A stretch of DNA of 64,000 nucleotides, from NCBI RefSeq assembly GCF_057098645.1, contig NZ_CM169472.1; one strand, written 5' to 3'. The notes beneath the pieces are model-generated. The model was not told where the DNA came from and made no database searches. It saw nothing but the letters and a program-made list of their open reading frames with translations. Positions 1 to 53,354 of this stretch are shown here, piece by piece (position 1 is the first letter of the stretch; every line of letters begins with the position of its first letter). The position numbers and the translations under genes are program-made.

Positions 1-78
1 CAGGCGGGCCAGTGACAATGCAGTTGCCGCACCGCCGATCCCGCCTCCCACAATTACTGCGCGTGTCACTTTCGTCAT
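1..78 (-). CDS. mhbM: 3-hydroxybenzoate 6-hydroxylase (FAD monooxygenase), N-terminal 26 codons only; gene runs off window start
   Basis: Reverse-strand ATG at 76-78 preceded by AGGAGAA RBS; translation MTKVTRAVIVGGGIGGAATALSLARL has FAD-binding GxGxxG; position after maleylpyruvate isomerase matches mhbRTDHIM order. Confidence 0.5.
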   Translation of the reverse strand, partial: MTKVTRAVIVGGGIGGAATALSLARL

Positions 79-92
79 TATAGTTCTCCTGG

Positions 93-740
93 TCAGGCTG
101 AAATTTTATCTTGTTGATTTTCTGGCGCTGCGGCAATGAACGCTGGCAGCTGTGTGCAGGCGTCGTACACCGCTTTGCAGCGTGGATACCCGCTCAAATC
201 GCAGTTCATGCGTAGCGCGTTTGCCCACTGCGGGACAAGGCAGCAATCTGCCAGCGTCGGCGTCTCGCCCACACAAAATTGCCCCGACTGGTTCTGGCGC
301 AACAGTTGTTCCACCGCGCTTAACCCTTGCTGGATCCAGTGCGCATACCAACGTTTTTTTTCTTCTTCACTGACGTTCAGTTCTTCGGTCAGGTAGCGCA
401 GCACGCGCAAGTTATTTAATGGATGAATATCACAAGCGATGGCATAGACAATTTCCAGCACCTTGTTGCGGGCCGGTTCTTCCTGCGGCACCAGCGGAAC
501 TTGCGGGTAGTGCCTCTCCAGCCAGTCAATAATCGCCAGCGATTGTCCGAGTGATTGGCCCTCGTCAGTCAGCAGCGTCGGCACCAGCCCGACCGGATTC
601 ATCCGCCGATAGGCCAGTTCATTTTGCTGACCAATACGGATATTCACCCCTTCGGTCTGGTAATTAATGCCTTTCAGCGCCAGCGCAATGCGTACCCGGT
701 ACGACGCTGAACTATTAAAAAAACTGTACAGCTTCATCAT
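93..740 (-). CDS. mhbI: maleylpyruvate isomerase (GST zeta-class)
   Basis: 215 aa ORF; N-terminal SSASYRVRIAL zeta-GST signature; context with gentisate dioxygenase and FAH hydrolase. Confidence 0.75.
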   Translation of the reverse strand: MMKLYSFFNSSASYRVRIALALKGINYQTEGVNIRIGQQNELAYRRMNPVGLVPTLLTDEGQSLGQSLAIIDWLERHYPQVPLVPQEEPARNKVLEIVYAIACDIHPLNNLRVLRYLTEELNVSEEEKKRWYAHWIQQGLSAVEQLLRQNQSGQFCVGETPTLADCCLVPQWANALRMNCDLSGYPRCKAVYDACTQLPAFIAAAPENQQDKISA

Positions 741-745
741 GCACC

Positions 746-1447
746 TCAGACAATCTTCACCGCGATAGGCGTTAAGCCCTCGACGTTGCCTGTGATCACA
801 TCACCTTTCACTACCGGGCCAACCCCTTCCGGCGTACCGGTGAAGATCAGATCGCCCGGTTGCAGCTCAAAGAAGCCTGACAGATAGCTGATGGTTTCAT
901 TCACCGACCAGATGAGATGGCGAATATCGCTGCGCTGATGATCTTCGCCGTTAACCTGTAACCAGATTGGCGCATTATCAATACCGCCGATATCGCGGGC
1001 TTTGTGCAGCGGCGCGATGGGCGCTGAGAGATCAAACGCTTTACCGATTTCCCACGGGCGGCCCATCTGGCGCATTTCCATTTGACGGTCACGCCGAGTC
1101 ATATCAAGACCCGTGGCATAACCCCAGACATATTCATGGGCGTGTTCCAGCGGGATATCGCTGCCTTTTTTACCAATCGCCACTACCAGTTCAATTTCGT
1201 AATGATAGTTATCGGTCTGCGCCGGATATGGCAGCGCCAGCGTTTCGCCAGCGGCGACCGGAATAACGGCATCTGCTGGTTTGCAGAAGAAGAAGGGTGG
1301 TTCACGATCCGGATCAAAGCCCATTTCGCGGGCGTGGGCGGCATAGTTACGCCCGACGCAGTAAACGCGACGCACGGGGAATTGTTTATCACTGCCAACA
1401 ACCGGTACGGTAACGGGCGCTTGTGGTTCGAATACATATTGAGTCAT
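746..1447 (-). CDS. mhbH: fumarylpyruvate hydrolase (fumarylacetoacetate hydrolase family)
   Basis: 233 aa ORF with FAH-family features ([14 protein letters not shown], metal-binding E/D cluster); 5-bp spacing to neighbours implies operon. Confidence 0.75.
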
Positions 1448-1462
1448 TTTCTCTCTCCCAAA

Positions 1463-2491
1463 TTAATAACGCGCTTCGCGGAAAAGCCCCAGGGCTTCTT
1501 GTACCGGTCTGTCCGAAAAACTGAATAAAACGGTATCTTGCGTAGTCTGGAATGACACGCCGTGCCAGGTCGGCACCACAAAGATATCTTTTGCACTAAA
1601 GGTGAAGATTTCATTGCCGATGGTGACTTGTCCGCTACCTTCCACTACATGGTAGATAGTGCTGTCAGTGGTGCGCGCCACGCGGGAGGAGAACCCTTTC
1701 GGTAGCAGTTGCAGGAAAGCGCCCATCGACGGCATCGGATAGCCGCCGGTGACCGGGTTGACGTAGCGCATTTTGTAGCCATCCCATTCGTCGGCATCGC
1801 CCATGCGGGTTAAATCGTGCAGCACTTCGCGGCTGCGGTCATAACGATAGTTAAAGATCGGCGAGGAGTTCCCCGTCTGATGGCGCAGCGGCAACATATT
1901 GGCAGCGTAACGCGGCAGGTAATCGCCCTCTTTACGCGTTACCGGTTGTTGATCTTCCGGGTAATCTTCGGCAAAACCGCAGCCCAGAGTGTTCACTAAT
2001 GGCAGATCCAACCCATCGAGCCAGATAACCGGTTCGTCGCCAGGGTTGCCGTGATCGTGCCAGCGCCACTGCGGGGTCAGGATAAAATCGCCCTCATTCA
2101 TTGGCGTGCGTTCGCCGTCAACGGCGGTAAATGCCCCTTTGCCTTCAACAATAAAACGCAGCGCCGACTGGTTATGACGATGACTCGGTGCCACTTCGCC
2201 CGGCATGATCAGTTGCAAACCGGCATATAAAGTCGCGGTGATGGAAGACTGCCCTCGCAGCGCCGGGTTTTCCAGTACCAGCACGCGGCGCACCGCCTCT
2301 TTCGCGCCAATCAGGCTGCCGCTCTCCAGCAGCAGCGGGCGGATCTCCTGATAATTCCAGTACGCTGGCGCACAGTTAGCGTTGGGCGTTTTCGGCACCA
2401 GATGGTGCAGTGACTCCCACAGCGGGGTCAGGTTTTGCCCGGAAATATGCTGATAAAATTGTTCACGGCTATTTTGATTGTTATCAGTCAT
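1463..2491 (-). CDS. mhbD: gentisate 1,2-dioxygenase (bicupin)
   Basis: 342 aa ORF; cupin His motifs ([15 protein letters not shown]); flanked by FAH hydrolase and MFS transporter. Confidence 0.8.
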
Positions 2492-2502
2492 TGGGATGCT
2501 CC

Positions 2503-3861
2503 TTATTCGTTCACAACACCTGCGTGAGGCAGTGAGTCAGGGATAGAGGTCGACTGGCGAACCACGGTGATCAACAGGGTTAACATCACCGCACTGATCG
2601 CCGCAGGCACAGCGATAATGAAAAACAGGGTGTCGAAAGAGAAATTCATCGCCATCATCACGCCGCCAGACAGCGAGCCAACAATCGCGCCGCAGCGGCC
2701 CACGGCGTTTGACCAGCTCACGCCCGTGGCGCGACTTTGTGTTGGATAAAGTGTTGCGGTCAGCGCATTCAGCCCCACCTGCGATCCGCTGATGCCAATG
2801 CCGGTGCCGAAAATCGCCAGCGCCATCAGCCATAATCCATCCTGGCTTAAGCCAATCATCACGATGCATATAGCGCCTGTGGCATAGCTCAGCGCCAGTA
2901 CGCGGAAAGGATTGAACTTATCCATCAGCACGCCCAGCGCCAGCGCGCCCAACGTACCGCCAATCTGGAACGCGGCGGTAACCCAGGAGGCATGTTGCAG
3001 GTCGATGCCGCGATGGTTGAGCAGCGTTGGCATCCAGCTTGAGAGCAGGTAAATAATCAGCAAGCTCATAAAGAACACCACCCACAGCATCAACGTGATG
3101 GGTAACTGACGCCCCATAAACAGTTGACGAATGCTGCCTTTTGTAACGGAGGCTGATTCAATGAGATAAAACTGGGTATCGACATAACGCTCGCGGGTGA
3201 TGGCGCTGACGGTTTTCGCAATCACCGCCTGGGGTAGCTGGCGGCGCACTTGCCAGCGTGGCGATTCCGGCAGAACCACCAGCAGTGCAACAAACAGCAT
3301 CAGCGGTAATACGCCACCCAACACCAGGATCCCGTGCCAGCCAATCACCGGCACCAGCTGCGCGCTGACAATCCCGCCAACCGCCGAACCCAGGGTAAAG
3401 CCGCAAAACATCAGCGTCACCAGCGCGCCGCGGCGGCGGGCAGGCAGATATTCCGAGGTCATGGTGATGGTGTTCGGCATCGCGCCGCCCAGACCCAAGC
3501 CGGTGAGAAAGCGCAGGAAGACCAGAGTTTGCAGATCCGGAGAGAAAGCTGAGGCGAGGCTTAACGCGCCAAACAAAAAGACGCACAGCTCAATCACCCG
3601 CTTGCGACCAAAGCGATCGGACAACGGGCCACAAAGCAGTGCGCCTGCGGTTAACCCCAGCAGACCCGCGCCAAAAAGCGGGGCGAGATCGCCTGCGGTG
3701 AGTTGCCAGTGAGTGCGAATATCAGGGGCGATAAATCCGATAGCCGCGGTGTCAAAACCATCGAGCATTACCACCAGAAAACAGCAGATGATAACGCGCC
3801 ACTGCATCTTGCCGACCGGAGCAGCATCGATAAGTGCTTGTAGATCACGTCGTTGAGTCAT
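2503..3861 (-). CDS. mhbT: MFS aromatic acid (3-hydroxybenzoate/gentisate) transporter
   Basis: 452 aa, multiple TM segments, MFS motif [12 protein letters not shown]; first gene of minus-strand catabolic operon. Confidence 0.75.
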
Positions 3862-3987
3862 AGTAAATGCCTCAGTGCAGGTAAGGTAGATGTTTCTTTT
3901 GTTTTGTATATGTTGCGATATTGTGATTAAAGAGATGAAATGTACAATGGCATTTCGGGCAGAGAGATAACCTGGAGGTTATGGTAA
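3862..3987. promoter_or_regulatory. divergent mhbR / mhbT control region with candidate LysR-type operator (ATTGTGA-N14-TGTACAAT, approx 3920-3950)
   Basis: 126-bp AT-rich spacer between divergently transcribed LysR gene and operon; imperfect inverted repeat of T-N11-A type seen by eye. Confidence 0.35.
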
Positions 3988-4896
3988 ATGGCGAACTGGG
4001 CGCAAAAATTAAAACTACATCACCTTGAAATGCTGGTGGCGTTGGGTGAACAGGGCAATCTGACCCATGTCGCACGAATGATGAATATCACCCAACCTGC
4101 GCTTTCGAAATGGTTGTCACAACTCGAAGATGAGATTGGAATCACACTTTTTGAGCGGCACAGCAAAGGATTACGTCCGACTGAAGGCGGCAAATTGTTA
4201 TTGCAACATGCCCAACGGTTAATCAATGACATGGAGCGATCGCAACATGAACTGGCCCGTTTTAAACAAGGTGGACTGGTCGGCAGTCTGAAAATTGGCT
4301 GTTCTCCCGTCGCCACTGACTGCGTATCCCAGGCGATTTTGCATTTGCTTACGAAGATGCCAACTCTACACCTGAATATCGAAGAGAAGGTGATGACCCC
4401 ATTGCTGCAAGATCTGTTGGCAGGTTCTGTCGACGTGGTCGTTGGGCGAATTGGCGGTCGCGCCTTGCAACTGCCACTGAATTATCAGGTGCTGTACACC
4501 GAGCCAGTATGCTTTGTCGCCAGCCCTGAGCACCCACTGGCGAAATACGCCACCCTCAGTTGGAATGATCTTGCCAACTGGCGCTGGATCGTCTGGCCGA
4601 CGGGTACCCCCATTCGCATTAGTATTGATAATGCGCTGGTAGACCACGGCGTAATGCTGCCAGAAAACACGATTGAGTCGGCGTCGATGAACGTCAGTAC
4701 CAACCTGTTACAAAGCAGCGATATGATCTCTATTTTGTCATTACGCCTGGCGCAACGTTATGCCAGCCAGGGACAACTGGTGATACTCAACCTGCCAAAG
4801 ATAGAACAGAAAGGCAGCGTCGGTGTGTTCTGGCGCAATAACGAAACGCCTTCTTATGCTTTAAGTCAGTTTCTGCACTTTTTACAGCAGAATTAG
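3988..4896 (+). CDS. mhbR: LysR-family transcriptional regulator of the gentisate operon
   Basis: 302 aa; N-terminal HTH (LTHVARMMNITQPALSKWLSQLE) typical of LysR; divergent from catabolic operon. Confidence 0.8.
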   Translation: MANWAQKLKLHHLEMLVALGEQGNLTHVARMMNITQPALSKWLSQLEDEIGITLFERHSKGLRPTEGGKLLLQHAQRLINDMERSQHELARFKQGGLVGSLKIGCSPVATDCVSQAILHLLTKMPTLHLNIEEKVMTPLLQDLLAGSVDVVVGRIGGRALQLPLNYQVLYTEPVCFVASPEHPLAKYATLSWNDLANWRWIVWPTGTPIRISIDNALVDHGVMLPENTIESASMNVSTNLLQSSDMISILSLRLAQRYASQGQLVILNLPKIEQKGSVGVFWRNNETPSYALSQFLHFLQQN

Positions 4897-5149
4897 TGTG
4901 CTGAACTGGGCATTCGCACGATGTTACTTCCCTGTAATTCAACGATGCGTAATTTTTCGGGGAATCGTGCACTGTGATAAGGCGTGATCTTTCATGGGGT
5001 GAAAATCCCACCAGGTGACTGTCGTTCCAGCCGGTAGCAGTCAAAGCAGTCGTGTGGGTAACAAAGCGGCTGATGTATTTGATGAAGAAGCTGTAGGTGT
5101 TTCAGTGAGTATACAGGTCATAATGTGAGTGAATCTGAGCAGGCCTCGA

Positions 5150-5930
5150 AAGAACCAATTGGAAGGACAACCCATTAGGAATTCCCAGAAAACAAGACAG
5201 GCATAGTGAGATGTGATCTAATTGATTGTGCTAGCAATTTCAAGGATATCACCACTATGCCTGCACGTTCATTATGCCAAAAATTCCTTAAAAACATACT
5301 GGCCACTTTGCATTTCTACCATCAAAAATCACTGATTGACGCAACAAATGCTGTAATAAATGGCGCTTCCCTCACGCTTAGCAGCATCGGGCGTCATTTA
5401 ACCAGACAGCATTAGTTAAAAACAAGATAAAGCGGGTGGATTGACCGTTGGGGAATTCTCAACTGAAAAATGATCTTCCCACCATTTTTCAGTTGGTTAC
5501 TCAAAAAAATACGCTGAGAATGTTCGTGTTGTTGTACGCCTTCGCCAGCAGTGGCAGGATGTTCAGGAGGAGTGTCGGCAGGCAGAGGTCGGATCAGGAG
5601 AGCGGCTGCGTAATGCCCTGCTGAATGTGGATTATACCACCAGTTTTGAACTGCCTTTTCGTCTGCTTTTAACCCGCACGTCACAGCTGATTGCTGTGCT
5701 TTGGGAAGAATGGGATATCAGCCAGAAAAATGTGGTGTTTAACGATAAACGCTTTGGTTGCGTGTATAGCCTGAAGGCCAGTCTTTCCGGCGTGCGGATA
5801 CATTCCGGTATCATCTGTCTCACCGTATTCGCCGGATGGTTGGGAATGAAATACATCATCGCCTTGGCAGCAGATTGCCCGGAAAGTGAAAGCGCTCCGT
5901 GAATGACTTAAGTATGCGCTAGAGGAGGGA
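5150..5930 (+). mobile_element. degenerate IS4-family (IS10-like) transposase remnant, frameshifted and 3'-truncated
   Basis: Short ORFs 5206-5415 and 5627-5902 carry IS10-like N-terminal motifs (ASLTLSSIGRHL cf. IS10 TLTLTELGRNL; IAVLWEEWDISQK cf. IVLVDWSDIREQK); boundaries approximate. Confidence 0.4.
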
Positions 5931-6082
5931 TTACTGGTGACCGCACTGGACGGTCTGTTCTGGTCTGGTAGTCAGCGTATTGCGGAAGATATTCTGTGTC
6001 GTTACGGGGAAGTCATCTTCACAGGGATCTTCAGTCAGTTAGTATTACCGACATTCATTCACCAACTTACCGGAGATAATCG

Positions 6083-6412
6083 ATGTCAAAACCCCGATGG
6101 ACCATTGAACAGAAAAGGCAGCACGTTGCTGCCTGGCGCGCCAGTGGTCTTACACGTCAGCAATACTGTGAACTCAACGATATTCCCTTCACATCACTTC
6201 GCGAATGGCCGCAGGATGTCGCAAAAGCTGAACGCCGGGCAAATGAACCGACCGTTCTTCCCGTTCATATTGCGCCACCACTGCATGCTGATGTACCACA
6301 GCCCGTCACGAATGAGCCAGTCACGCTCTTCCTTCCCGGCGGAGTACGGATGTGCTGTCAGCCGTCACAACTTACCGATGTCTTCAGGGCGCTCAAATAT
6401 GCTCAGTCCTGA
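6083..6412 (+). CDS. IS66-family accessory protein TnpA (orf1)
   Basis: 109 aa, HTH-like (WTIEQKRQHVAAWRASGLTRQQYCELNDI); stop overlaps tnpB start. Confidence 0.65.
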   Translation: MSKPRWTIEQKRQHVAAWRASGLTRQQYCELNDIPFTSLREWPQDVAKAERRANEPTVLPVHIAPPLHADVPQPVTNEPVTLFLPGGVRMCCQPSQLTDVFRALKYAQS

Positions 6413-6791
6413 TAATGTCTTCATCGCGATTAAACCTGTTGACATGCGCCGGGGCATCGACACACTGACGCAGTATATACAGGATGAACTCCGGTCGACA
6501 TGGCATGAGGGAGCCGCCTTCGTCTTTGTTAACAAAGACCGTTCGCGTATCAAAGTTCTCCGGTGGGATAAACACGGGGTGTGGTTGTGTACCCGCCGTC
6601 TTCACAAAGGCAGCTTCCGCTGGCCACGTGCAAATGATGCTGCCTGGCACCTCACTCCCGACGAGTTTAACTGGCTGATTGCCGGTGTTGACTGGCAGCA
6701 GGTTAAGGGACATGGCCTGACGAAATGGGTCTGGCAAAATGAACCTGAACTGCGCCCTGAAAACACGCAAAACACACTGCTAACTCACTGA
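6399..6791 (+). CDS. IS66-family TnpB (orf2)
   Basis: In-frame ATG at 6399 within track ORF 5937-6791; sequence MLSPDNVFIAIKPVDMRRGIDTL... resembles IS66 orf2. Confidence 0.6.
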   Translation: MLSPDNVFIAIKPVDMRRGIDTLTQYIQDELRSTWHEGAAFVFVNKDRSRIKVLRWDKHGVWLCTRRLHKGSFRWPRANDAAWHLTPDEFNWLIAGVDWQQVKGHGLTKWVWQNEPELRPENTQNTLLTH

Positions 6792-6797
6792 AAAATA

Positions 6798-7845
6798 ATG
6801 AATATTCGTATCCGGAGTGGTATGCTCCCCTGTATGGATATCTCCGCTCTCAACACCACGAATGACATCGAAAAACTGCGTGCTATGGCACTTGCCATGG
6901 TACAAAAAGTCATGTCGGAGAATGCCGAAAAAGAGCGGGAATTACTGGAGAAAAGCCGGCGCATCCAGCTTCTGGAAGAAATGCTGAAACTGGTTCGTCA
7001 ACAGCGCTTCGGTAAAAAATGTGAAACGCTGGCTGGTATGCAACGCTCCCTGTTCGAAGAGGATGTTGATGTCGATATCGCCGAGCTCACCGCACATCTG
7101 GATAAACTGCTCCCGCAATCCCCTGAAGAAGACGAAAAAGCGTCCCGTTCACGCCCGATACGCAAACCCTTACCGGCTCATCTTCCACGGGTGGAAAAAA
7201 TTATCCAGCCGGACACTGACCATTGCCCTGAATGTGACGAGCCGCTGCACTATATCCGTGATGCGGTGAGTGAAAAGCTGGAGTATATTCCCGCTCACTT
7301 TGTGGTGAACTGTTATGTCCGTCCGCAATACAGTTGTCCCTGTTGCCAGAAGGTGTTCAGCGGTGAAATGCCGGCACATATCCTCCCGAAAAGTGCCGTT
7401 GAGCCATCAGTCATCGCACAGGTGATCATCAATAAATACGGTGAGCACCTGCCTCTGTATCGCCAGCAACAGGTCTTTGCCCGTTCAGATGTCGGACTGC
7501 CCGTCAGTTCGATGGCTGACATGGTTGGCGCGGCAGGGGCCGCATTATCCCCCCTCGCGGCGTTACTCCATCGCGAATTGATAAGCCGTCCGGTGGTGCA
7601 TGCAGATGAGACTACCCTGAAGATCCTGAACACGAAGAAAGGCGGTAAATCCTGCTCCGGTTATCTGTGGGCATACGTCAGTGGAGAAAGGACGGGACCG
7701 TCAGTTGTGTGCTTCGACTGCCGGACCGGACGTAGCCATGAGTATCCTGAAAACTGGCTTCAGGGCTGGGGCGGGACGCTGGTTGTCGACGGACATAAAG
7801 CTTACCGGACTCTGGCAAACAAAGTGCCGGAGCTGGCGAATATCA
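6798..7845 (+). pseudogene. IS66-family transposase TnpC, C-terminally truncated (about 350 of about 520 aa)
   Basis: Coiled-coil N-term, zinc finger CPECDE...CPCCQ, DDE motifs; homology ends after LVVDGHKAYRTLANKVPEL where a Gly/Ala-rich PT-VENN-like sequence begins. Confidence 0.6.
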
Positions 7846-8441
7846 TCGGTCATCACGCGGGTATTGATGACAATACAGCGGCAAAAGCCATTGCCCATGC
7901 CATTCTCGGTGGTGTGACAGCAGCCCTTCAGGGCAACAGTGCGGCAGCAGGCGCAATTGGTGCGGGTACTGGTGAAGTGATCTCGTCAGCCATTGCGAAA
8001 AGCCTCTACCCGGACGTAGATCCGTCGAAACTGACAGAAGATCAGAAGCAAACCGTAAGCACGCTGGCAACGCTGTCAGCGGGTATGGCTGGCGGCATTG
8101 CCAGTGGCGATGTGGCTGGCACAGCTGCAGGGGCTGGTGTTGGGAAGAACATTGCTGAGAATAACTTGGTTGGTGGCACAGAGTCCGAGCAGAGCAAAGC
8201 TGCTCAGACGCATGGCGCAGATGTACTTTCCTGTAACGATGCTCCAGGCGGTGAAGCCTGTAAGCGAGGAGAAGCAGTCAATAAAGCGTATGCCGGAGCG
8301 TTGGCCACTGGTAGTGTAGCTCTCTTACCTGGCGGTGCTCAGGCCATGTGGGCTCTTGGCACAGGTGCAAATGCAGGAATTGGTTACATGGTAGATAGTT
8401 CAGTTGATCCTGAAAATGCAATCATTGCAGGATGGGTCTGA
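7846..8441 (+). pseudogene. orphan CdiA-CT-like toxin fragment: pretoxin PT-VENN-like region (AENN) plus about 90 aa of CT N-terminal region, cut by IS629
   Basis: KLTEDQKQTVSTLATLSAGMAGGIASGDVAGTAAGAGVGKNIAENN resembles CdiA pretoxin region ending in VENN-type motif; two Cys after motif; reading frame ends at TGA that is first triplet of IS629 IR. Confidence 0.5.
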
Positions 8442-8480
8442 ACCGCCCCGGGTTTCCTGGAGAGTGTTTTATCTGTGAAC

Positions 8481-9371
8481 TCAGGCTGCCAGATCATCGT
8501 TTCCGATGGAAGCATAATAAGCTTTTTCTGCTTCTGCCGGAGGAGTATGGCCCAGCCTTTCCAGCAATCGTCGATTGTTATACCAGTCCACCCACGTGAG
8601 TGTGGCCAGTTCCACTTCTGCACGGTTTTTCCAGCTCTTACGGTGTATTACCTCCGCTTTGTAAAGACCATTGATGCTCTCCGCCATCGCGTTGTCATAC
8701 GAGTCGCCTGTACTTCCTGTTGATGCCAGTAATCCGGCTTCCTTAAGCCGCTGTGTGTAGGCCAGCGATACATACTGAGAACCTTTATCACTGTGATGGA
8801 CCGTGCCGGACGGTCGACGGGCCCATAACGCCTGCTCCAGTGCATCCAGCACGAATGTCGTCTCCATGGACGATGAGACCCGCCACCCCACAATGTATCC
8901 GGCAAACACATCAATGATGAACGCCACATAGACGAAGCCCTGCCATGTGCTGACGTAAGTAAAATCAGCCACCCACAGCTGGTCAGGTCGTTCTGCCACG
9001 AACTGACGGTTTACGCGGTCGCCTGCGGCAACGGCTTTCCGGCTGATGGTCGTACGGACCTTTTTACCCCGGAGAACACCGGCAAGTCCCATAACCGCCA
9101 TGAGACGTGCCACAGTGCATCTGGCCACTCTGATACCTTCCCGTAACAACTGACGCCAGACTTTACGCACACCGTATACCTTGTGATTTTCATCGTATAC
9201 GCGCTGTATCTCTTTCTTCAGCCAGTCATCGCGCTGCGCACGGGCACTGCGTTTATCCGGATGATGTCGCTGTTGCTGACAGTGGTAATACGTTGACGGG
9301 GCAATATGCAGTTCGCTGCATAGCGGTCCGACCCCGTACTGCTCACGCAGCTTATCCAGCAGTGGCATCAT
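8481..9371 (-). CDS. IS629 transposase OrfB (DDE integrase domain)
   Basis: 296 aa with DDE motifs ([25 protein letters not shown]); start overlaps orfA stop; expressed as OrfAB by -1 frameshift. Confidence 0.85.
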
Positions 9372-9694
9372 TTTTTCCAGAGGCGGTCGAACTCCGCCTT
9401 CGCAAAATAAGCGGAAGCCTGGCGAAGGATATCGTTACTGCGGCGCAGTTCACGATTTTCACGCTCCAGCTCTTTCAGACGCTGACGTTCAGCGGTGGTG
9501 AGCCCTCCATCACCGCCCCCGGTATCCCGCTCATGCTGGCGAACCCAGACACGCAGAGTCTCCGGCGTACAGCCAATCTTTGGAGCAATGGAACAAATTG
9601 TCGCCCATTGTGAGTCATATTCGCCCTGACTTTCCAGAACCATACGGACTGCCCGTTGACGGACTTCAGGGGAAAAACGAGTATTTTTAGTCAT
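9368..9694 (-). CDS. IS629 OrfA (HTH / leucine zipper)
   Basis: 108 aa [19 protein letters not shown]...; A6 slippery run (minus-strand GGAAAAAATGATG, approx 9366-9380) at orfA/orfB overlap. Confidence 0.85.
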
Positions 9695-9745
9695 CCTGTT
9701 TACCTCTTTCTCAGGAAGTTTAGTCTCCAGGATTCCCGGGGCGGT

Positions 9746-44271: not shown

Positions 44272-45390
44272 TTATTCTCCCCGTGAGTCAGCGTTATCTT
44301 TCTTTTGCTGACGACCCAGTTCACGCACCGCCATCACGCTGACACCGGCAACCAGCCCAACCACACCGCCGAGCAAACCAATAGCGCCCGCAGAGACGTT
44401 GCCGCCTTCTTTAGCGTTAACGTCCGGTTTCTGTGAACGCGGAGTCTGATTTTCGACGTTGGCAAGCTGATGGATGCCTTTATGGAAGCCGATACCTTCT
44501 TCGTTACAGCCATAGCACGGGTGACCAATCGCCACCGGCCACACACCGCCAACATCGCAGAATTGCAGCGTTGAGCAGTTGCCGTAAGTTTCTGGCCCTT
44601 TACAGCCGAGGTGGTACAGGCACCAGCCTTCGCGGTGGCCTTCATCACCGAACTCTTTGGCAAAACGACCAGCATCGAAGTGCGGGCGACGTTCGCAGTG
44701 TTCGTGAATCAGACGGCCATAGGCGAAGGTCGGACGGTTTTTGTCATCCAGTTTCGGCGGTTTGCCGTAAGTGATGATGTGCGCAACGGTCGCGAGGAAG
44801 TTGTGCGGGTTCGGCGGGCAGCCCGGAATATTGATAACGGTTTTGCCTGGCAGAACTTCTTGCAGGCTGACTGCGCCAGTTGGGTTAACTCCAGCTGCGG
44901 CAACACCGCCCCACGCAGAGCAGGAACCGATAGCGATAATGGCTGCTGCGCCTTCCGCCGCTTTGCGGATGTGATCCACAATCGGCTCACCGGCAACCAT
45001 GCAATAAATACCGTTATCTTTTAATGGGATGGAACCATCCACCACTAACACATACTGCCCTTTGTACTTCTCGAGAGCGTTATGTTTGTTCTCTTCGACC
45101 TGATGACCGAAGGCGGCGGAAAGCACTTCGTGATACTCCAGAGAGATAGTCTCCAGTACGAGGTTTTCTACCGTTGGATGCGTTGCACGAAGCAGAGATT
45201 CCGTACAACCGGTGCACTCCTGCGCGCCAATCCAGATAACTGGCGGACGCTGCGGGTTAGTAACCGATTCGGCCATCTCTGCAGCGGCTTTGCTACTTAA
45301 CCCCATGGTGGCGGCTAATGCTGCACAAAGCTTCATGAAATCACGACGGTTAATGCCGTGAGAATGGATGAGGGTGTTATCTCCAGTCAT
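44272..45390 (-). CDS. hybO: [NiFe] hydrogenase-2 small subunit
   Basis: 372 aa; Tat signal RRDFMK; Fe-S cysteine motifs. Confidence 0.95.
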
Positions 45391-45578
45391 TTATAGTTAT
45401 TCCGTTGCGAAGACCTGGCATATATTTTGCCTCAATCGCAAAATCAATAATGCGATCGATGCGCCATTTACCACACATTTATTATGGTTATCGATATCAT
45501 GATACTGCGGCGGGGTGCTAAAACGAAGGGAAGAAGCATTAGTGTAATTAATTAAAGCAAGATAATACGTATGTTTGA

Positions 45579-45866
45579 TCAATTTTCGAGGCGATAACCG
45601 GCCATAAAAAAGCGCAACGTAGAACAGGAATTATTCTCACGAAAGAAATCCATTACCATCTCTTTATCCAGTCCATAGCGGCGCGTCAGAATACCCGCTT
45701 CCCAGGCGCTAAGCTGGCGATCTCCGGTCTTTTCGTACATCCGGTGTGAGTAGCCTAATACAAAACCGCGTTTATAATCGGCACAGAATTTTGTCACATT
45801 AACCGCACTGTCGGCATGCGTTGCTTTTAATCCCGCCATTAAGCCTTTACCAAAATGGTTATTCAT
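45579..45866 (-). CDS. yghW: DUF2623-family small protein
   Basis: 95 aa; position between hybO and yghX as in K-12. Confidence 0.8.
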
Positions 45867-48793: not shown

Positions 48794-49678
48794 ATGTCTC
48801 ATATAAAAGACCCGACCACGCAGTATTACACTGGTGAATATCCCAAACAGAAACAACCGACGCCAGGCATCCAGGCGAAGATGACACCGGTACCGGATTG
48901 CGGCGAGAAAACCTATGTTGGTAGCGGTCGCCTGAAAGATCGTAAAGCACTGGTGACAGGGGGCGATTCCGGAATCGGTCGCGCTGCCGCCATCGCTTAC
49001 GCGCGTGAAGGGGCTGACGTGGCGATCAGTTATCTTCCCGTGGAAGAAGAAGACGCTCAGGATGTGAAAAAGATCATTGAAGAATGCGGACGCAAAGCCG
49101 TTCTGCTGCCAGGCGATTTAAGCGATGAGAAATTCGCCCGTTCGCTGGTTCACGAAGCGCACAAGGCGTTAGGCGGGCTGGATATTATGGCGCTGGTCGC
49201 CGGGAAACAGGTTGCCATTCCTGATATTGCAGACCTCACCAGCGAACAGTTTCAAAAGACCTTTGCCATTAACGTTTTCGCGCTGTTCTGGCTAACCCAG
49301 GAAGCGATCCCCCTGCTACCGAAAGGTGCAAGTATCATCACCACTTCGTCAATCCAGGCATACCAGCCAAGTCCGCATTTACTGGACTATGCGGCTACGA
49401 AGGCGGCGATTCTGAACTACAGCCGTGGCCTGGCAAAACAGGTCGCGGAGAAAGGTATTCGGGTGAATATTGTCGCGCCAGGCCCTATCTGGACGGCACT
49501 ACAAATTTCCGGCGGACAAACGCAGGATAAGATCCCGCAGTTTGGTCAGAAAACGCCGATGAAGCGTGCGGGGCAACCGGCGGAACTGGCCCCAGTATAT
49601 GTTTATCTGGCAAGTCAGGAGTCGAGCTACGTCACCGCAGAAGTGCACGGTGTGTGCGGCGGCGAGCATTTAGGTTAA
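48794..49678 (+). CDS. yghA: SDR-family NAD(P)-dependent oxidoreductase
   Basis: 294 aa; [11 protein letters not shown]ossmann and YxxxK. Confidence 0.9.
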
Positions 49679-49744
49679 AAAAATGCCCGGTTGTGAAAAG
49701 CAACCGGGCATCATTGTGAATTCACTCTTACCTGATGTGGCGAA

Positions 49745-49940
49745 AACGCCTTATCCGCCTACAAACGCATGAAGATTCAACATGTTGCAATAGATTTTGT
49801 AGGCCTGATAAGCGTAGCGCATCAGGCATTGAGCACCTAATGCCGGATGCGGCGTGAACGCCTTATCCGGCCTACAAACGCACGAAGATTCAACATGTTG
49901 CAATAGATTTTGTAGGCCTGATGAGCGTAGCGCATCAGGC
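49745..49940. repeat. tandemly duplicated REP/BIME unit (two copies of about 85 bp, period about 111 bp)
   Basis: ACGCCTTATCCG(G)CCTACAAACGCA(T/C)GAAGATTCAACATGTTGCAATAGATTTTGTAGGCCTGAT(A/G)AGCGTAGCGCATCAGGCA occurs at about 49745-49828 and 49856-49940. Confidence 0.8.
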
Positions 49941-49949
49941 AATTCTACT

Positions 49950-50375
49950 TTACTTCGCTTTGGCGGTTTCTTCGCCGACCAGACCTATCTTCAGGTAACC
50001 CGCCTGATGCAGCGTATCCATTACCTTCATCAACGTCTCGTAATCGACGGTTTTATCCGCTCGGAAGAAGATGGTGGTGTCTTTCTTGCCTTCGGTTAAC
50101 GCATTCAACGCCGTAATCATTGTTTCATCGGTGACCGGATCGTTACCGATAAACATCGAGTTGTCTGCCTTCACCGACAGATAAACCGGTTTTTCCGGGC
50201 GCGGCTGCGGCGTGCTGGTAGAAGCAGGCAAGTTAACCTTCACATCTACCGTCGCTAACGGTGCCGCCACCATAAAGATAATCAGCAGAACCAACATCAC
50301 GTCGATAAACGGCGTCACGTTGATATCATGCATTTCGCCGTTATCATCGAGGTTTTCGTTAAGATGCATTGCCAT
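49950..50375 (-). CDS. exbD: TonB-system biopolymer transport protein
   Basis: 141 aa; single TM; matches ExbD. Confidence 0.95.
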   Translation of the reverse strand: MAMHLNENLDDNGEMHDINVTPFIDVMLVLLIIFMVAAPLATVDVKVNLPASTSTPQPRPEKPVYLSVKADNSMFIGNDPVTDETMITALNALTEGKKDTTIFFRADKTVDYETLMKVMDTLHQAGYLKIGLVGEETAKAK

Positions 50376-50381
50376 CGGACA

Positions 50382-51116
50382 TTATCCTGCACGTAATTTT
50401 TGTGCGACACGAACCGGATGCGCAGCGGCGCTGGCTTCCAGATCCAGGTCACGGCTTTGCAGCAACAATACCTGCGCTGCAACATCACCCAGCATCGCTT
50501 TAAAGCCGCCAATCTGGCGTGCAAATACGTTATAGATAACGACCGCCGGAATCGCTGCCACCAGACCGATTGCCGTTGCTAACAGAGCTTCTGCGATACC
50601 CGGCGCAACGACTGCCAGGTTAGTAGTCTGCGTTTGCGCGATACCAATAAAGCTGTTCATGATGCCCCAGACCGTACCAAACAGACCAACGAACGGCGAA
50701 ATCGCGCCGATGGTTGCCAGATAGCCGTTACCGCGGCCCATTTGACGACCTACTGCGGCGACCCGACGCTCCAGACGGAAGCTGGTACGTTCTTTAATAC
50801 CTTCGTTATCGTCGCTGCCTTCTGACAGTTCCAGCTCATTCTGCGCTTCATTGAGCAAATGCAGGCTTAAGCTTTTGCTACCAAAATCAGCGGCGATATC
50901 GTTGGCCTGGTTTAAGGAACGCGCTTCAGCCAGCAGTTGCTGCTCGCGCTTAAGGCGACGCTTCTGATTGAAGAACTCTACGCTCTTACTGAAGAAGATT
51001 GCCCAGGTGACTACGGAGGCCAAAATAAGCCCAATCATCACGCACTTAACGACAATATCGGCGTGCTGATACATACCCCAGACGGAAAGGTCCGTCTGCA
51101 TTAAATTATTACCCAC
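50382..51116 (-). CDS. exbB: TonB-system proton-channel protein
   Basis: 244 aa; MotA/TolQ/ExbB family. Confidence 0.95.
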   Translation of the reverse strand: MGNNLMQTDLSVWGMYQHADIVVKCVMIGLILASVVTWAIFFSKSVEFFNQKRRLKREQQLLAEARSLNQANDIAADFGSKSLSLHLLNEAQNELELSEGSDDNEGIKERTSFRLERRVAAVGRQMGRGNGYLATIGAISPFVGLFGTVWGIMNSFIGIAQTQTTNLAVVAPGIAEALLATAIGLVAAIPAVVIYNVFARQIGGFKAMLGDVAAQVLLLQSRDLDLEASAAAHPVRVAQKLRAG

Positions 51117-51169
51117 TGTGTATCTCCAGGACGCAAGTCACAAAATCTGCGCATAATAATATCAAAACG

Positions 51170-51350
51170 ACGTCGAATTGATAGTCGTTCTCATTACTAT
51201 TTGCATACTGCCGTACCTTTGCTTTCTTTTCCTTGCGTTTACGCAGTAAAAAAGTCACCAGCACGCCATTTGCGAAAATTTTCTGCTTTATGCCAATTCT
51301 TCAGGATGCGCCCGCGAATATTCATGCTAGTTTAGACATCCAGACGTATA
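51170..51350. promoter_or_regulatory. exbB / metC divergent control region: candidate Fur box (about 51174-51200) and tandem MetJ met-boxes AGACATCC-AGACGTAT (51335-51350)
   Basis: GAATTGATAGTCGTTCTCATTACTATT resembles Fur consensus; two 8-bp met-box-like repeats just upstream of metC start. Confidence 0.4.
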
Positions 51351-51367
51351 AAAACAGGAATCCCGAC

Positions 51368-52555
51368 ATGGCGGACAAAAAGCTTGATACTCAACTGGTG
51401 AATGCAGGACGCAGCAAAAAATACACTCTCGGCGCGGTAAATAGCGTGATTCAGCGCGCTTCTTCGCTGGTATTTGAGAGTATGGAAGCCAAAAAGCACG
51501 CGACGCGCAATCGCGCCAATGGCGAGTTGTTCTATGGACGGCGCGGAACGTTAACCCATTTTTCCTTACAACAAGCGATATGTGAACTGGAAGGTGGCGC
51601 AGGCTGCGCGCTATTTCCCTGCGGGGCGGCAGCGGTTGCTAATTCGATTCTTGCTTTTGTCGAACAGGGCGATCATGTGTTGATGACCAACACCGCCTAT
51701 GAACCGAGTCAGGATTTCTGTAGCAAAATCCTCAGCAAACTGGGCGTAACGACATCATGGTTTGATCCGCTGATTGGTGCCGATATCGTTAAGCATCTGC
51801 AGCCAAACACTAAAATCGTATTTCTGGAATCGCCGGGTTCCATCACTATGGAAGTCCACGACGTTCCGGCGATTGTTGCCGCCGTGCGCAGTGTGGTGCC
51901 GGATGCCATCATTATGATCGACAACACCTGGGCAGCCGGTGTGCTGTTTAAGGCGCTGGATTTTGGCATCGATGTTTCTATTCAAGCCGCCACCAAATAT
52001 CTGGTTGGGCATTCAGATGCGATGATTGGCACTGCCGTGTGCAATGCCCGTTGCTGGGAGCAGCTACGGGAAAATGCCTATCTGATGGGCCAGATGGTCG
52101 ATGCCGATACCGCCTATATAACCAGCCGTGGCCTGCGCACATTAGGTGTGCGTTTGCGTCAACATCATGAAAGCAGTCTGAAAGTGGCTGAATGGCTGGC
52201 AGAACATCCGCAAGTTGCGCGAGTTAACCACCCTGCCCTGCCTGGCAGTAAAGGACACGAATTCTGGAAACGAGACTTTACAGGCAGCAGCGGGCTATTT
52301 TCCTTTGTGCTTAAGAAAAAACTCAATGATGAAGAGCTGGCGAACTATCTGGATAACTTCAGTTTATTCAGCATGGCCTACTCGTGGGGCGGGTATGAAT
52401 CGTTGATCCTGGCAAATCAACCAGAACATATCGCCGCCATTCGCCCACAAGGCGAGATCGATTTTAGCGGGACCTTGATTCGCCTGCATATTGGTCTGGA
52501 AAATGTCGACGATCTGATTGCCGATCTGGACGCCGGTTTTGCGCGGATTGTATAA
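51368..52555 (+). CDS. metC: cystathionine beta-lyase
   Basis: 395 aa from [14 protein letters not shown]...; PLP-dependent Cys/Met metabolism family. Confidence 0.95.
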
Positions 52556-52694
52556 CATTGCCACTTTTGGACAATTTTGCAGACATTTTATTGTGAAAAG
52601 TCTTAAATTGTTGCGTCCGGGATCAAGGCGTCCCGGACGATTCAGGAGTACAATAGGCAGATAAAGGCTTAAACGCTGTTCCACAGGAAAGTCC

Positions 52695-53354
52695 ATGGCT
52701 GTTATTCAAGATATCATCGCTGCGCTCTGGCAACACGACTTTGCCGCGCTGGCGGATCCTCATATTGTTAGCGTTGTTTACTTTGTCATGTTTGCCACGC
52801 TGTTTTTAGAAAACGGCCTGCTGCCCGCCTCATTTTTGCCAGGCGACAGCTTGTTGATATTGGCTGGCGCATTGATTGCCCAGGGGGTTATGGATTTTCT
52901 GCCTACGATTGCGATTCTGACCGCCGCAGCAAGTCTGGGCTGCTGGCTAAGTTATATTCAGGGGCGCTGGTTAGGGAATACCAAAACGGTGAAAGGCTGG
53001 CTGGCACAGCTTCCTGCTAAATATCATCAGCGCGCCACCTGCATGTTTGACCGCCACGGTCTGCTGGCGCTGCTGGCTGGACGTTTTCTTGCATTTGTCC
53101 GTACGCTGCTGCCAACCATGGCGGGAATTTCCGGTCTGCCAAACCGCCGTTTCCAGTTTTTCAACTGGTTAAGCGGATTGCTGTGGGTCAGCGTGGTAAC
53201 CAGTTTCGGCTATGCCTTAAGTATGATTCCGTTCGTTAAACGCCATGAAGATCAGGTAATGACGTTCCTGATGATCCTGCCAATTGCCTTGTTAACCGCT
53301 GGCTTGTTAGGCACGCTGTTTGTGGTGATTAAAAAAAAATACTGTAACGCCTGA
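52695..53354 (+). CDS. yghB: DedA-family inner membrane protein
   Basis: 219 aa; matches YghB. Confidence 0.9.

Follow-up and report, generated by a model that had tools for sequence, protein, structure and literature searches.

The exbB and metC genes lie back to back in Escherichia coli, and the short spacer between them raises the question of how two genes serving different ends, the energizing of the TonB system and methionine metabolism, are each controlled from the same stretch of DNA. Eick-Helmerich and Braun reportedly were the first, in 1989, to note a "Fur box" at exbB. The original prediction for this locus placed a Fur-box-like sequence upstream of exbB and two tandem 8-bp met-box-like repeats immediately upstream of metC, in keeping with known iron and methionine control, and offered the region as a sanity check that the core genome here is canonical. 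Here we ask whether both operators are present and intact, whether each acts on one gene only, and whether anything else in the spacer is likely to be regulatory.

The exbB-metC spacer is identical to that of E. coli K-12

Between positions 50300 and 52600, the window (the whole 64,000-nucleotide stretch of DNA that we analyzed) is 100% identical to E. coli O145:H28 chromosomes. RefSeq annotation and the list of open reading frames (ORFs) agree on the genes around the spacer:

48794-49678, + strand: yghA
49950-50375, − strand: exbD
50382-51116, − strand: exbB, first gene of exbBD, GTG start at 51116 (also TIGR02797)
51368-52555, + strand: metC (cystathionine beta-lyase), ATG at 51368 (also NCBIfam)
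52695-53354, + strand: yghB

The gene names given in the original prediction proved correct, as did the divergent orientation of exbD-exbB and metC, which is that of the RefSeq annotation. ExbB matched NCBIfam model TIGR02797 (exbB) at 344 bits against a cutoff of 206, and MetC matched NF005990 at 831 bits and TIGR01324 at 564 bits. RefSeq nevertheless gives ExbB (WP_000527844.1) the product name "tol-pal system-associated acyl-CoA thioesterase," which derives from the title of NCBIfam NF007722 (PRK10414.1); given a TIGR02797 match well over its cutoff, this looks like a mislabelled family title.

The spacer (51117-51367, 251 bp) is identical to that of K-12 strain MG1655 at 251 of 251 bases and is at least 99% identical in 5,392 of 5,422 complete E. 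coli genomes. Because it is the K-12 sequence base for base, experimental work on the K-12 spacer applies to it directly, and the description of the region as a canonical one suited to a sanity check is apt. An Rfam scan of positions 49600 to 52000 (E ≤ 1) found no RNA family in the spacer, the only match being the REP-derived naRNA4, further to the left. That match (RF02564; 49802-49872; 68.1 bits on the − strand and 50.2 bits on the + strand) falls among the REP-type repeats of the yghA-exbD spacer (49668-49872). The left part of the window holds accessory DNA (1-11500 and 22100-33100) with IS3 copies, a CDI immunity gene and a Flp/Tad-type pilus cluster, and the segment between yghO and yghS encodes a fatty acyl-AMP ligase, an acyl carrier protein, a serine palmitoyltransferase and second copies of lptF and lptG. 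Both glcF and yghO are pseudogenes by annotation.

The strongest Fur site in the window lies upstream of exbB

We made position weight matrices (PWMs) for Fur from 12 K-12 regions in which Fur binding had been footprinted with DNase (Chen et al. 2007, PMC2189734, Table 3), leaving out exbB. The regions were taken from NC_000913.3, with coordinate offsets corrected, and symmetrised 19-bp matrices were iteratively refined in two registers, the classical one and a single-dimer one (7-1-7, or "M9"). In the single-dimer register, the highest score in the 64-kb window was found in the exbB-metC spacer, which supplies the exact position that the original prediction lacked:

51177-51195, unstranded: Fur core ATTGATAGTCGTTCTCATT (ATTGATAGT-C-GTTCTCATT, a 9-1-9 inverted repeat), centred on 51186, 17.48 bits
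51177-51207, unstranded: cluster of three overlapping 19-bp Fur sites, centred on 51186, 51192 and 51198 in 6-bp steps

The score of the core falls inside the range of the leave-one-out scores of the 12 training sites (9.1 to 24.5), and its centre is at −70 from the exbB start codon. The three sites of the cluster, which together cover 31 bp, scored 17.48, 5.72 and 4.10 bits. A score as high as that of the core has a probability of 5.5e−7 per position, corresponding to 0.035 expected per window. As a negative control, the best Fur score within 150 bp upstream of exbD was −5.1 bits.

In the classical register, the best match at exbB, GATAGTCGTTCTCATTACT at 51180-51198 (centred on 51189), scored 11.19 bits and ranked seventh in the window, and a second match at 51174-51192 (centred on 51183) scored 8.96 bits and ranked eighteenth. 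A plain search for the 19-bp Fur consensus GATAATGATAATCATTATC with up to 3 mismatches found nothing in the whole window, because the exbB site, read in the classical register, differs from that consensus at 7 of its 19 bases. The exbB site can thus be detected with a matrix and not by consensus matching, and it illustrates how a PWM can succeed where a plain consensus fails.

These results agree closely with published work on the same sequence. Chen et al. 2007 (PMC2189734) described a 19.1-bit Fur site at −70 from exbB, with 3 walkers over 31 bp and a positive gel shift, and upstream of exbD they found −5.0 bits and no gel shift. Our score for exbB is lower than theirs (17.5 versus 19.1 bits) because exbB was left out of our training set. 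In addition, a Fur ChIP-exo peak has been assigned to exbB in both MG1655 and W3110, and exbB and exbD are core members of the Fur regulon across nine strains (Gao et al. 2023, PMC10164565); both genes are also reported to be Fur regulated in UPEC. The MG1655 peak (3150091-3150113 in version-2 coordinates; Gao et al. 2023, PMC10164565) maps to 51201-51223 in the window, at the distal edge of the Fur cluster. There is a small discrepancy here, in that the peak overlaps only the distal weak site, its centre being displaced ~26 bp upstream from the PWM core.

Other matches to regulator motifs were seen elsewhere in the window. The second-best Fur score, 15.5 bits, belongs to AATGACTTTAGTTTTCATT at 16155-16173, which covers the beginning of the glcG coding sequence just before the glcF/glcG junction, and is probably a chance match. 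Fur matches of 10 to 14 bits occur in the hybO-yghW spacer (45474-45498) and inside hybO (45003-45021 and 44827-44845). The literature assigns a Fur ChIP-exo peak to hybO (~45622-45634) and places an FNR site at 45564-45587; our hybO-region Fur matches are ~130 bp away from that peak. Grainger et al. 2007 also reported an FNR ChIP-chip peak together with the AlignACE motif GTCCATGGCTGTTATTCAAGATAT (52691-52714), which directly overlies the start codon of yghB.

A two-box MetJ operator precedes metC

For MetJ, we used the information matrix and thresholds of Augustus and Spicer 2011 (PMC3228920, Table 3), which ask that each box score at least one-quarter of the consensus (3.15 bits) and that the array score at least as much as the consensus (12.58 bits). 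One site in the 64-kb window passed these thresholds:

51334-51341, + strand: metbox 1, AGACATCC, 8.96 bits
51342-51349, + strand: metbox 2, AGACGTAT, 9.96 bits

The two 8-bp boxes abut with no gap and end 18 bp before the metC ATG, well within the ~75 bp upstream of a methionine-pathway gene that serves as the location criterion for MetJ sites. Their total of 18.92 bits ranked first among 63,985 two-box scores, the runner-up reaching 12.58 bits. Furthermore, the pair was the sole match in the window to two tandem copies of AGACGTCT at up to 3 mismatches, where 0.12 would be expected in 64 kb. The in-register neighbours of the two boxes scored −9.43 and −8.70 bits, and these negative values imply that the metC operator has exactly two boxes. 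Two metboxes are the minimum for cooperative MetJ binding.

Thus, both elements named in the original prediction passed the PWM check that it proposed. For metC too there is published work on the K-12 sequence: the entry for K-12 metC (b3008) in PMC3228920 Table S1 has the same 16-mer, at 18.92 bits, with 2 boxes and 18 bp to the ATG, and the same study reported a MetJ gel shift with the Ec.metC fragment and repression of metC in vivo (as a lacZ repression ratio).

Both operators are conserved across the Enterobacteriaceae

A scan for MetC, taking one genome per species, yielded 80 Enterobacteriaceae loci, and exbB was divergent from metC in 78 of them. Spacer length in these 78 species was 247 to 254 bp in 73 cases (full range, 190 to 277 bp). 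In the alignment, mean identity to the window was 0.966 over the Fur core and 0.933 over the metboxes, compared with 0.645 over the intervening positions 51208 to 51333. The AGG of the metC ribosome-binding site (51356-51358) was also conserved in the 78-species alignment.

The pattern of variation follows what the two matrices allow. Among the 78 species, the one base of the Fur 19-mer that changed was the central one, 51186 (A in 31, C in 28 and G in 19), which is the sole position left free by the 9-1-9 dyad, and the best Fur score was at least 17.1 bits in every species. The metboxes scored at least 14.4 bits in 78 of 78 species, with variation confined to positions that the matrix tolerates (positions 1 and 5 of box 1, rarely others).

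The operators overlie likely extended −10 promoters

A generic sigma-70 promoter and terminator scan of positions 51000 to 51500 found none on either strand, as expected of extended −10 promoters with poor −35 hexamers. We therefore drew on 5′ ends from differential RNA sequencing (dRNA-seq) of Shigella flexneri M90T (PMC7132871, suppl. 3), transferred to the window via identical 100-nt upstream strings, and on conservation among the 78 species:

51147, − strand: exbB transcription start site (TSS), with a leader of 31 nt; two more 5′ ends lie at 51141 and 51137 (S. flexneri M90T dRNA-seq)
51156-51164, − strand: putative exbB extended −10 element, TGaTATTAT, hexamer from 51161 to 51156, 8 nt upstream of the mapped TSS
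51325-51333, + strand: putative metC extended −10 element, TGcTAGTTT, from the conservation pattern TG-n-TA-g-T-y-T

At exbB, the TG and hexamer positions 1, 2, 3, 5 and 6 were invariant in 78 of 78 species, which suggests a promoter of the extended −10 type. The Fur core, centred ~39 bp upstream of the TSS at 51147, spans ~−30 to −48 and so covers the −35 position, which fits repression by occlusion. The S. flexneri data, on identical sequence, also contain a "primary" 5′ end at 51106 on the − strand, 10 nt inside annotated exbB, with an in-frame ATG (51101-51099) 5 nt further on. RNA processing or an artefact might account for this end, as might a near-leaderless transcript translated from the downstream ATG.

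On the metC side, the TG and hexamer positions 1, 2, 4 and 6 were invariant, and the "n" of the pattern was free (G in 32, C in 20, T in 15 and A in 11 species). We infer from this conservation an extended −10 signature and predict that metC transcription starts near 51340. If so, the metboxes would begin one base past the −10 hexamer and would extend from ~−6 to +10 of the predicted start. A metC TSS is absent from the S. flexneri table (PMC7132871), from Romero 2014 and from the ROSE supplement, and a literature text search found no metC promoter.

Two independent regulatory units share the spacer

Taken together, these results point, with a probability of about 95%, to two independent back-to-back promoter/operator units in the 251-bp spacer, with Fur acting on exbBD and MetJ on metC. 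In the mechanism that we propose, exbBD transcription would run leftward from a start near 51147, driven by the extended −10 promoter TGaTATTAT. In iron-replete cells, Fe2+-Fur dimers would occupy the overlapping 19-bp sites at 51177-51207, with the core over the −35 position, and would occlude RNA polymerase, so that the genes of the TonB-system energiser would be repressed; upon iron starvation, Fur would leave the DNA and exbBD would be derepressed. In the opposite direction, metC would be transcribed rightward from the putative extended −10 element TGcTAGTTT, and when S-adenosylmethionine is abundant, two MetJ dimers would bind cooperatively to the tandem metboxes at 51334-51349, covering the predicted metC start and blocking initiation. 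The start site of metC, both −10 assignments and this steric mode of repression are those that we infer. Repressor binding, the regulation of both genes and the independence of exbB from MetJ have been demonstrated experimentally, in published work with the same sequence from K-12.

Might the two motifs instead be chance resemblances in an AT-rich spacer, with no regulatory role? The empty consensus search and the rank of only seventh in the classical register could be read that way, and a Fur score as high as that of the core turned up somewhere in 6.5% of simulated 64-kb windows. Within the spacer, however, at its own base composition, only ~0.001 such Fur scores are expected, and the MetJ score was reached in none of 100 Markov-1 simulated windows. 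Moreover, conservation in 78 species footprints both sites, with variation only where the matrices tolerate it, and binding and regulation have been published for the identical sequence by gel shift, ChIP-exo and reporter assay. Conservation, together with the gel shifts and ChIP-exo, already refutes a chance origin, to which we give practically no credence. As the original prediction held, iron and methionine control of these genes is known.

A different reading would have the two units share their regulators, with MetJ acting also on exbB or Fur also on metC. The genes are divergent and just 251 bp apart, and the narrow distribution of spacer lengths across species would be compatible with control reaching across the spacer. 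Nevertheless, an exbB reporter was bound by MetJ only by way of the fragment that exbB has in common with metC, and exbB was not under MetJ regulation in vivo (PMC3228920); in the supplementary Fur regulon lists of Gao et al. 2023 (PMC10164565), metC does not appear. The distances also speak against it: from the Fur core it is ~150 bp downstream to the predicted metC start, and from the metboxes ~190 bp downstream to the exbB start. Shared control of this kind is therefore very unlikely, and we retain two units that act independently.

A conserved block of sequence lies between the two operators

The alignment drew attention to one further element in the spacer:

51228-51252, unstranded: conserved block TTTCCTTGCGTTTACGCAGTAAAAA, between the Fur and MetJ operators, with the inverted repeat TGCG-N4-CGCA

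The block is nearly invariant over the 78 species and both of its flanks are variable. Its general form is TTTCCTTGCG-yTTA-CGCAGTAAAAA, with C at position 51238 in most species, and the centre of the dyad TTGCG-N4-CGCAG, at 51239.5, corresponds to −92.5 from the mapped exbB TSS. Reading of the sequence led us to reject sites for PurR, PhoP, IHF and CRP and a marbox as explanations of the block. An intrinsic terminator was also rejected, since on neither strand does the hairpin have its A/T run on the side that termination requires.

The block may serve a third regulator, whether FNR, CpxR or some other factor, that modulates exbB, metC or both, a suggestion that we regard as tentative. In its favour, besides near-invariance between variable flanks and the location of the dyad relative to the exbB TSS, two independent FNR ChIP studies found a peak in the spacer and no recognised FNR box accompanies it: Grainger et al. 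2007 placed a peak at 3,150,195 (~51305 in the window) for which a motif was not found, and Myers et al. 2013 placed a summit at 3,150,150 (~51260) and proposed masking by Fur. Stronger anaerobic repression of exbB has been reported in the literature, and a study of the Cpx response picked metC and exbB as PSSM candidates. Several observations count against such a regulator. With an approximate FNR PWM trained on the motifs of Grainger et al. 2007 (training median, 13.1 bits; minimum, 1.4 bits), the block scored a weak 6.51 bits at 51231-51248, rank 88 in the window, and Myers et al. 2013 saw expression unchanged by FNR. Elsewhere in the spacer, the same matrix gave another weak match, 6.95 bits at 51281-51298, which is not conserved. 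For CpxR, the − strand of the block, GTAAACGCAAGGAAA at 51228-51242, has 1 mismatch to GTAAA-N5-GTAAA, but the pattern is not enriched, with 4 matches in the window against 2.96 expected; metC levels by quantitative PCR were similar with and without cpxR, and the values in the Cpx study were equivocal.

We put forward, as a more doubtful proposal still, that the block is a putative uncharacterised regulatory site, one option being that it is the noncanonical target behind the motif-less FNR ChIP signals. If a third regulator does act here, oxygen (or envelope-stress) control exerted from −92.5 could add to the iron control of the TonB energiser, and in this respect the block offers a small lead for work on how oxygen or stress might control the TonB system.

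Comparison with known operators

Our own analysis contributes the matrix scores of the two operators, their uniqueness in the window and their phylogenetic footprints. The elements themselves are the published K-12 operators, unchanged; they are already known and nothing about them is novel. Their value is that of a control, in that textbook iron and methionine regulation is intact in a core-genome segment of an O145:H28 enterohemorrhagic E. coli (EHEC) strain, and because the operators are unchanged in O145:H28, regulatory knowledge from K-12 carries over to exbBD and metC.

The exbB Fur cluster has the same sequence, the same centre, the same three-site, 31-bp architecture and the same negative result at exbD as its K-12 counterpart, and only the host, O145:H28, differs. 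As at other Fur-repressed promoters of the TonB system, such as those of tonB, fepA-fes and fhuA, 19-bp sites overlap in 6-bp steps across the exbB core promoter. Unlike them, exbB combines one strong dimer site with weak neighbours and differs from the classical consensus at 7 of 19 bases. The metC operator does not differ from that of K-12, the 16-mer, score, number of boxes and distance to the ATG all being identical, and it is a minimal two-box operator, whereas those of metA, metB/J, metF and mmuP have four boxes (PMC3228920 Table S1).
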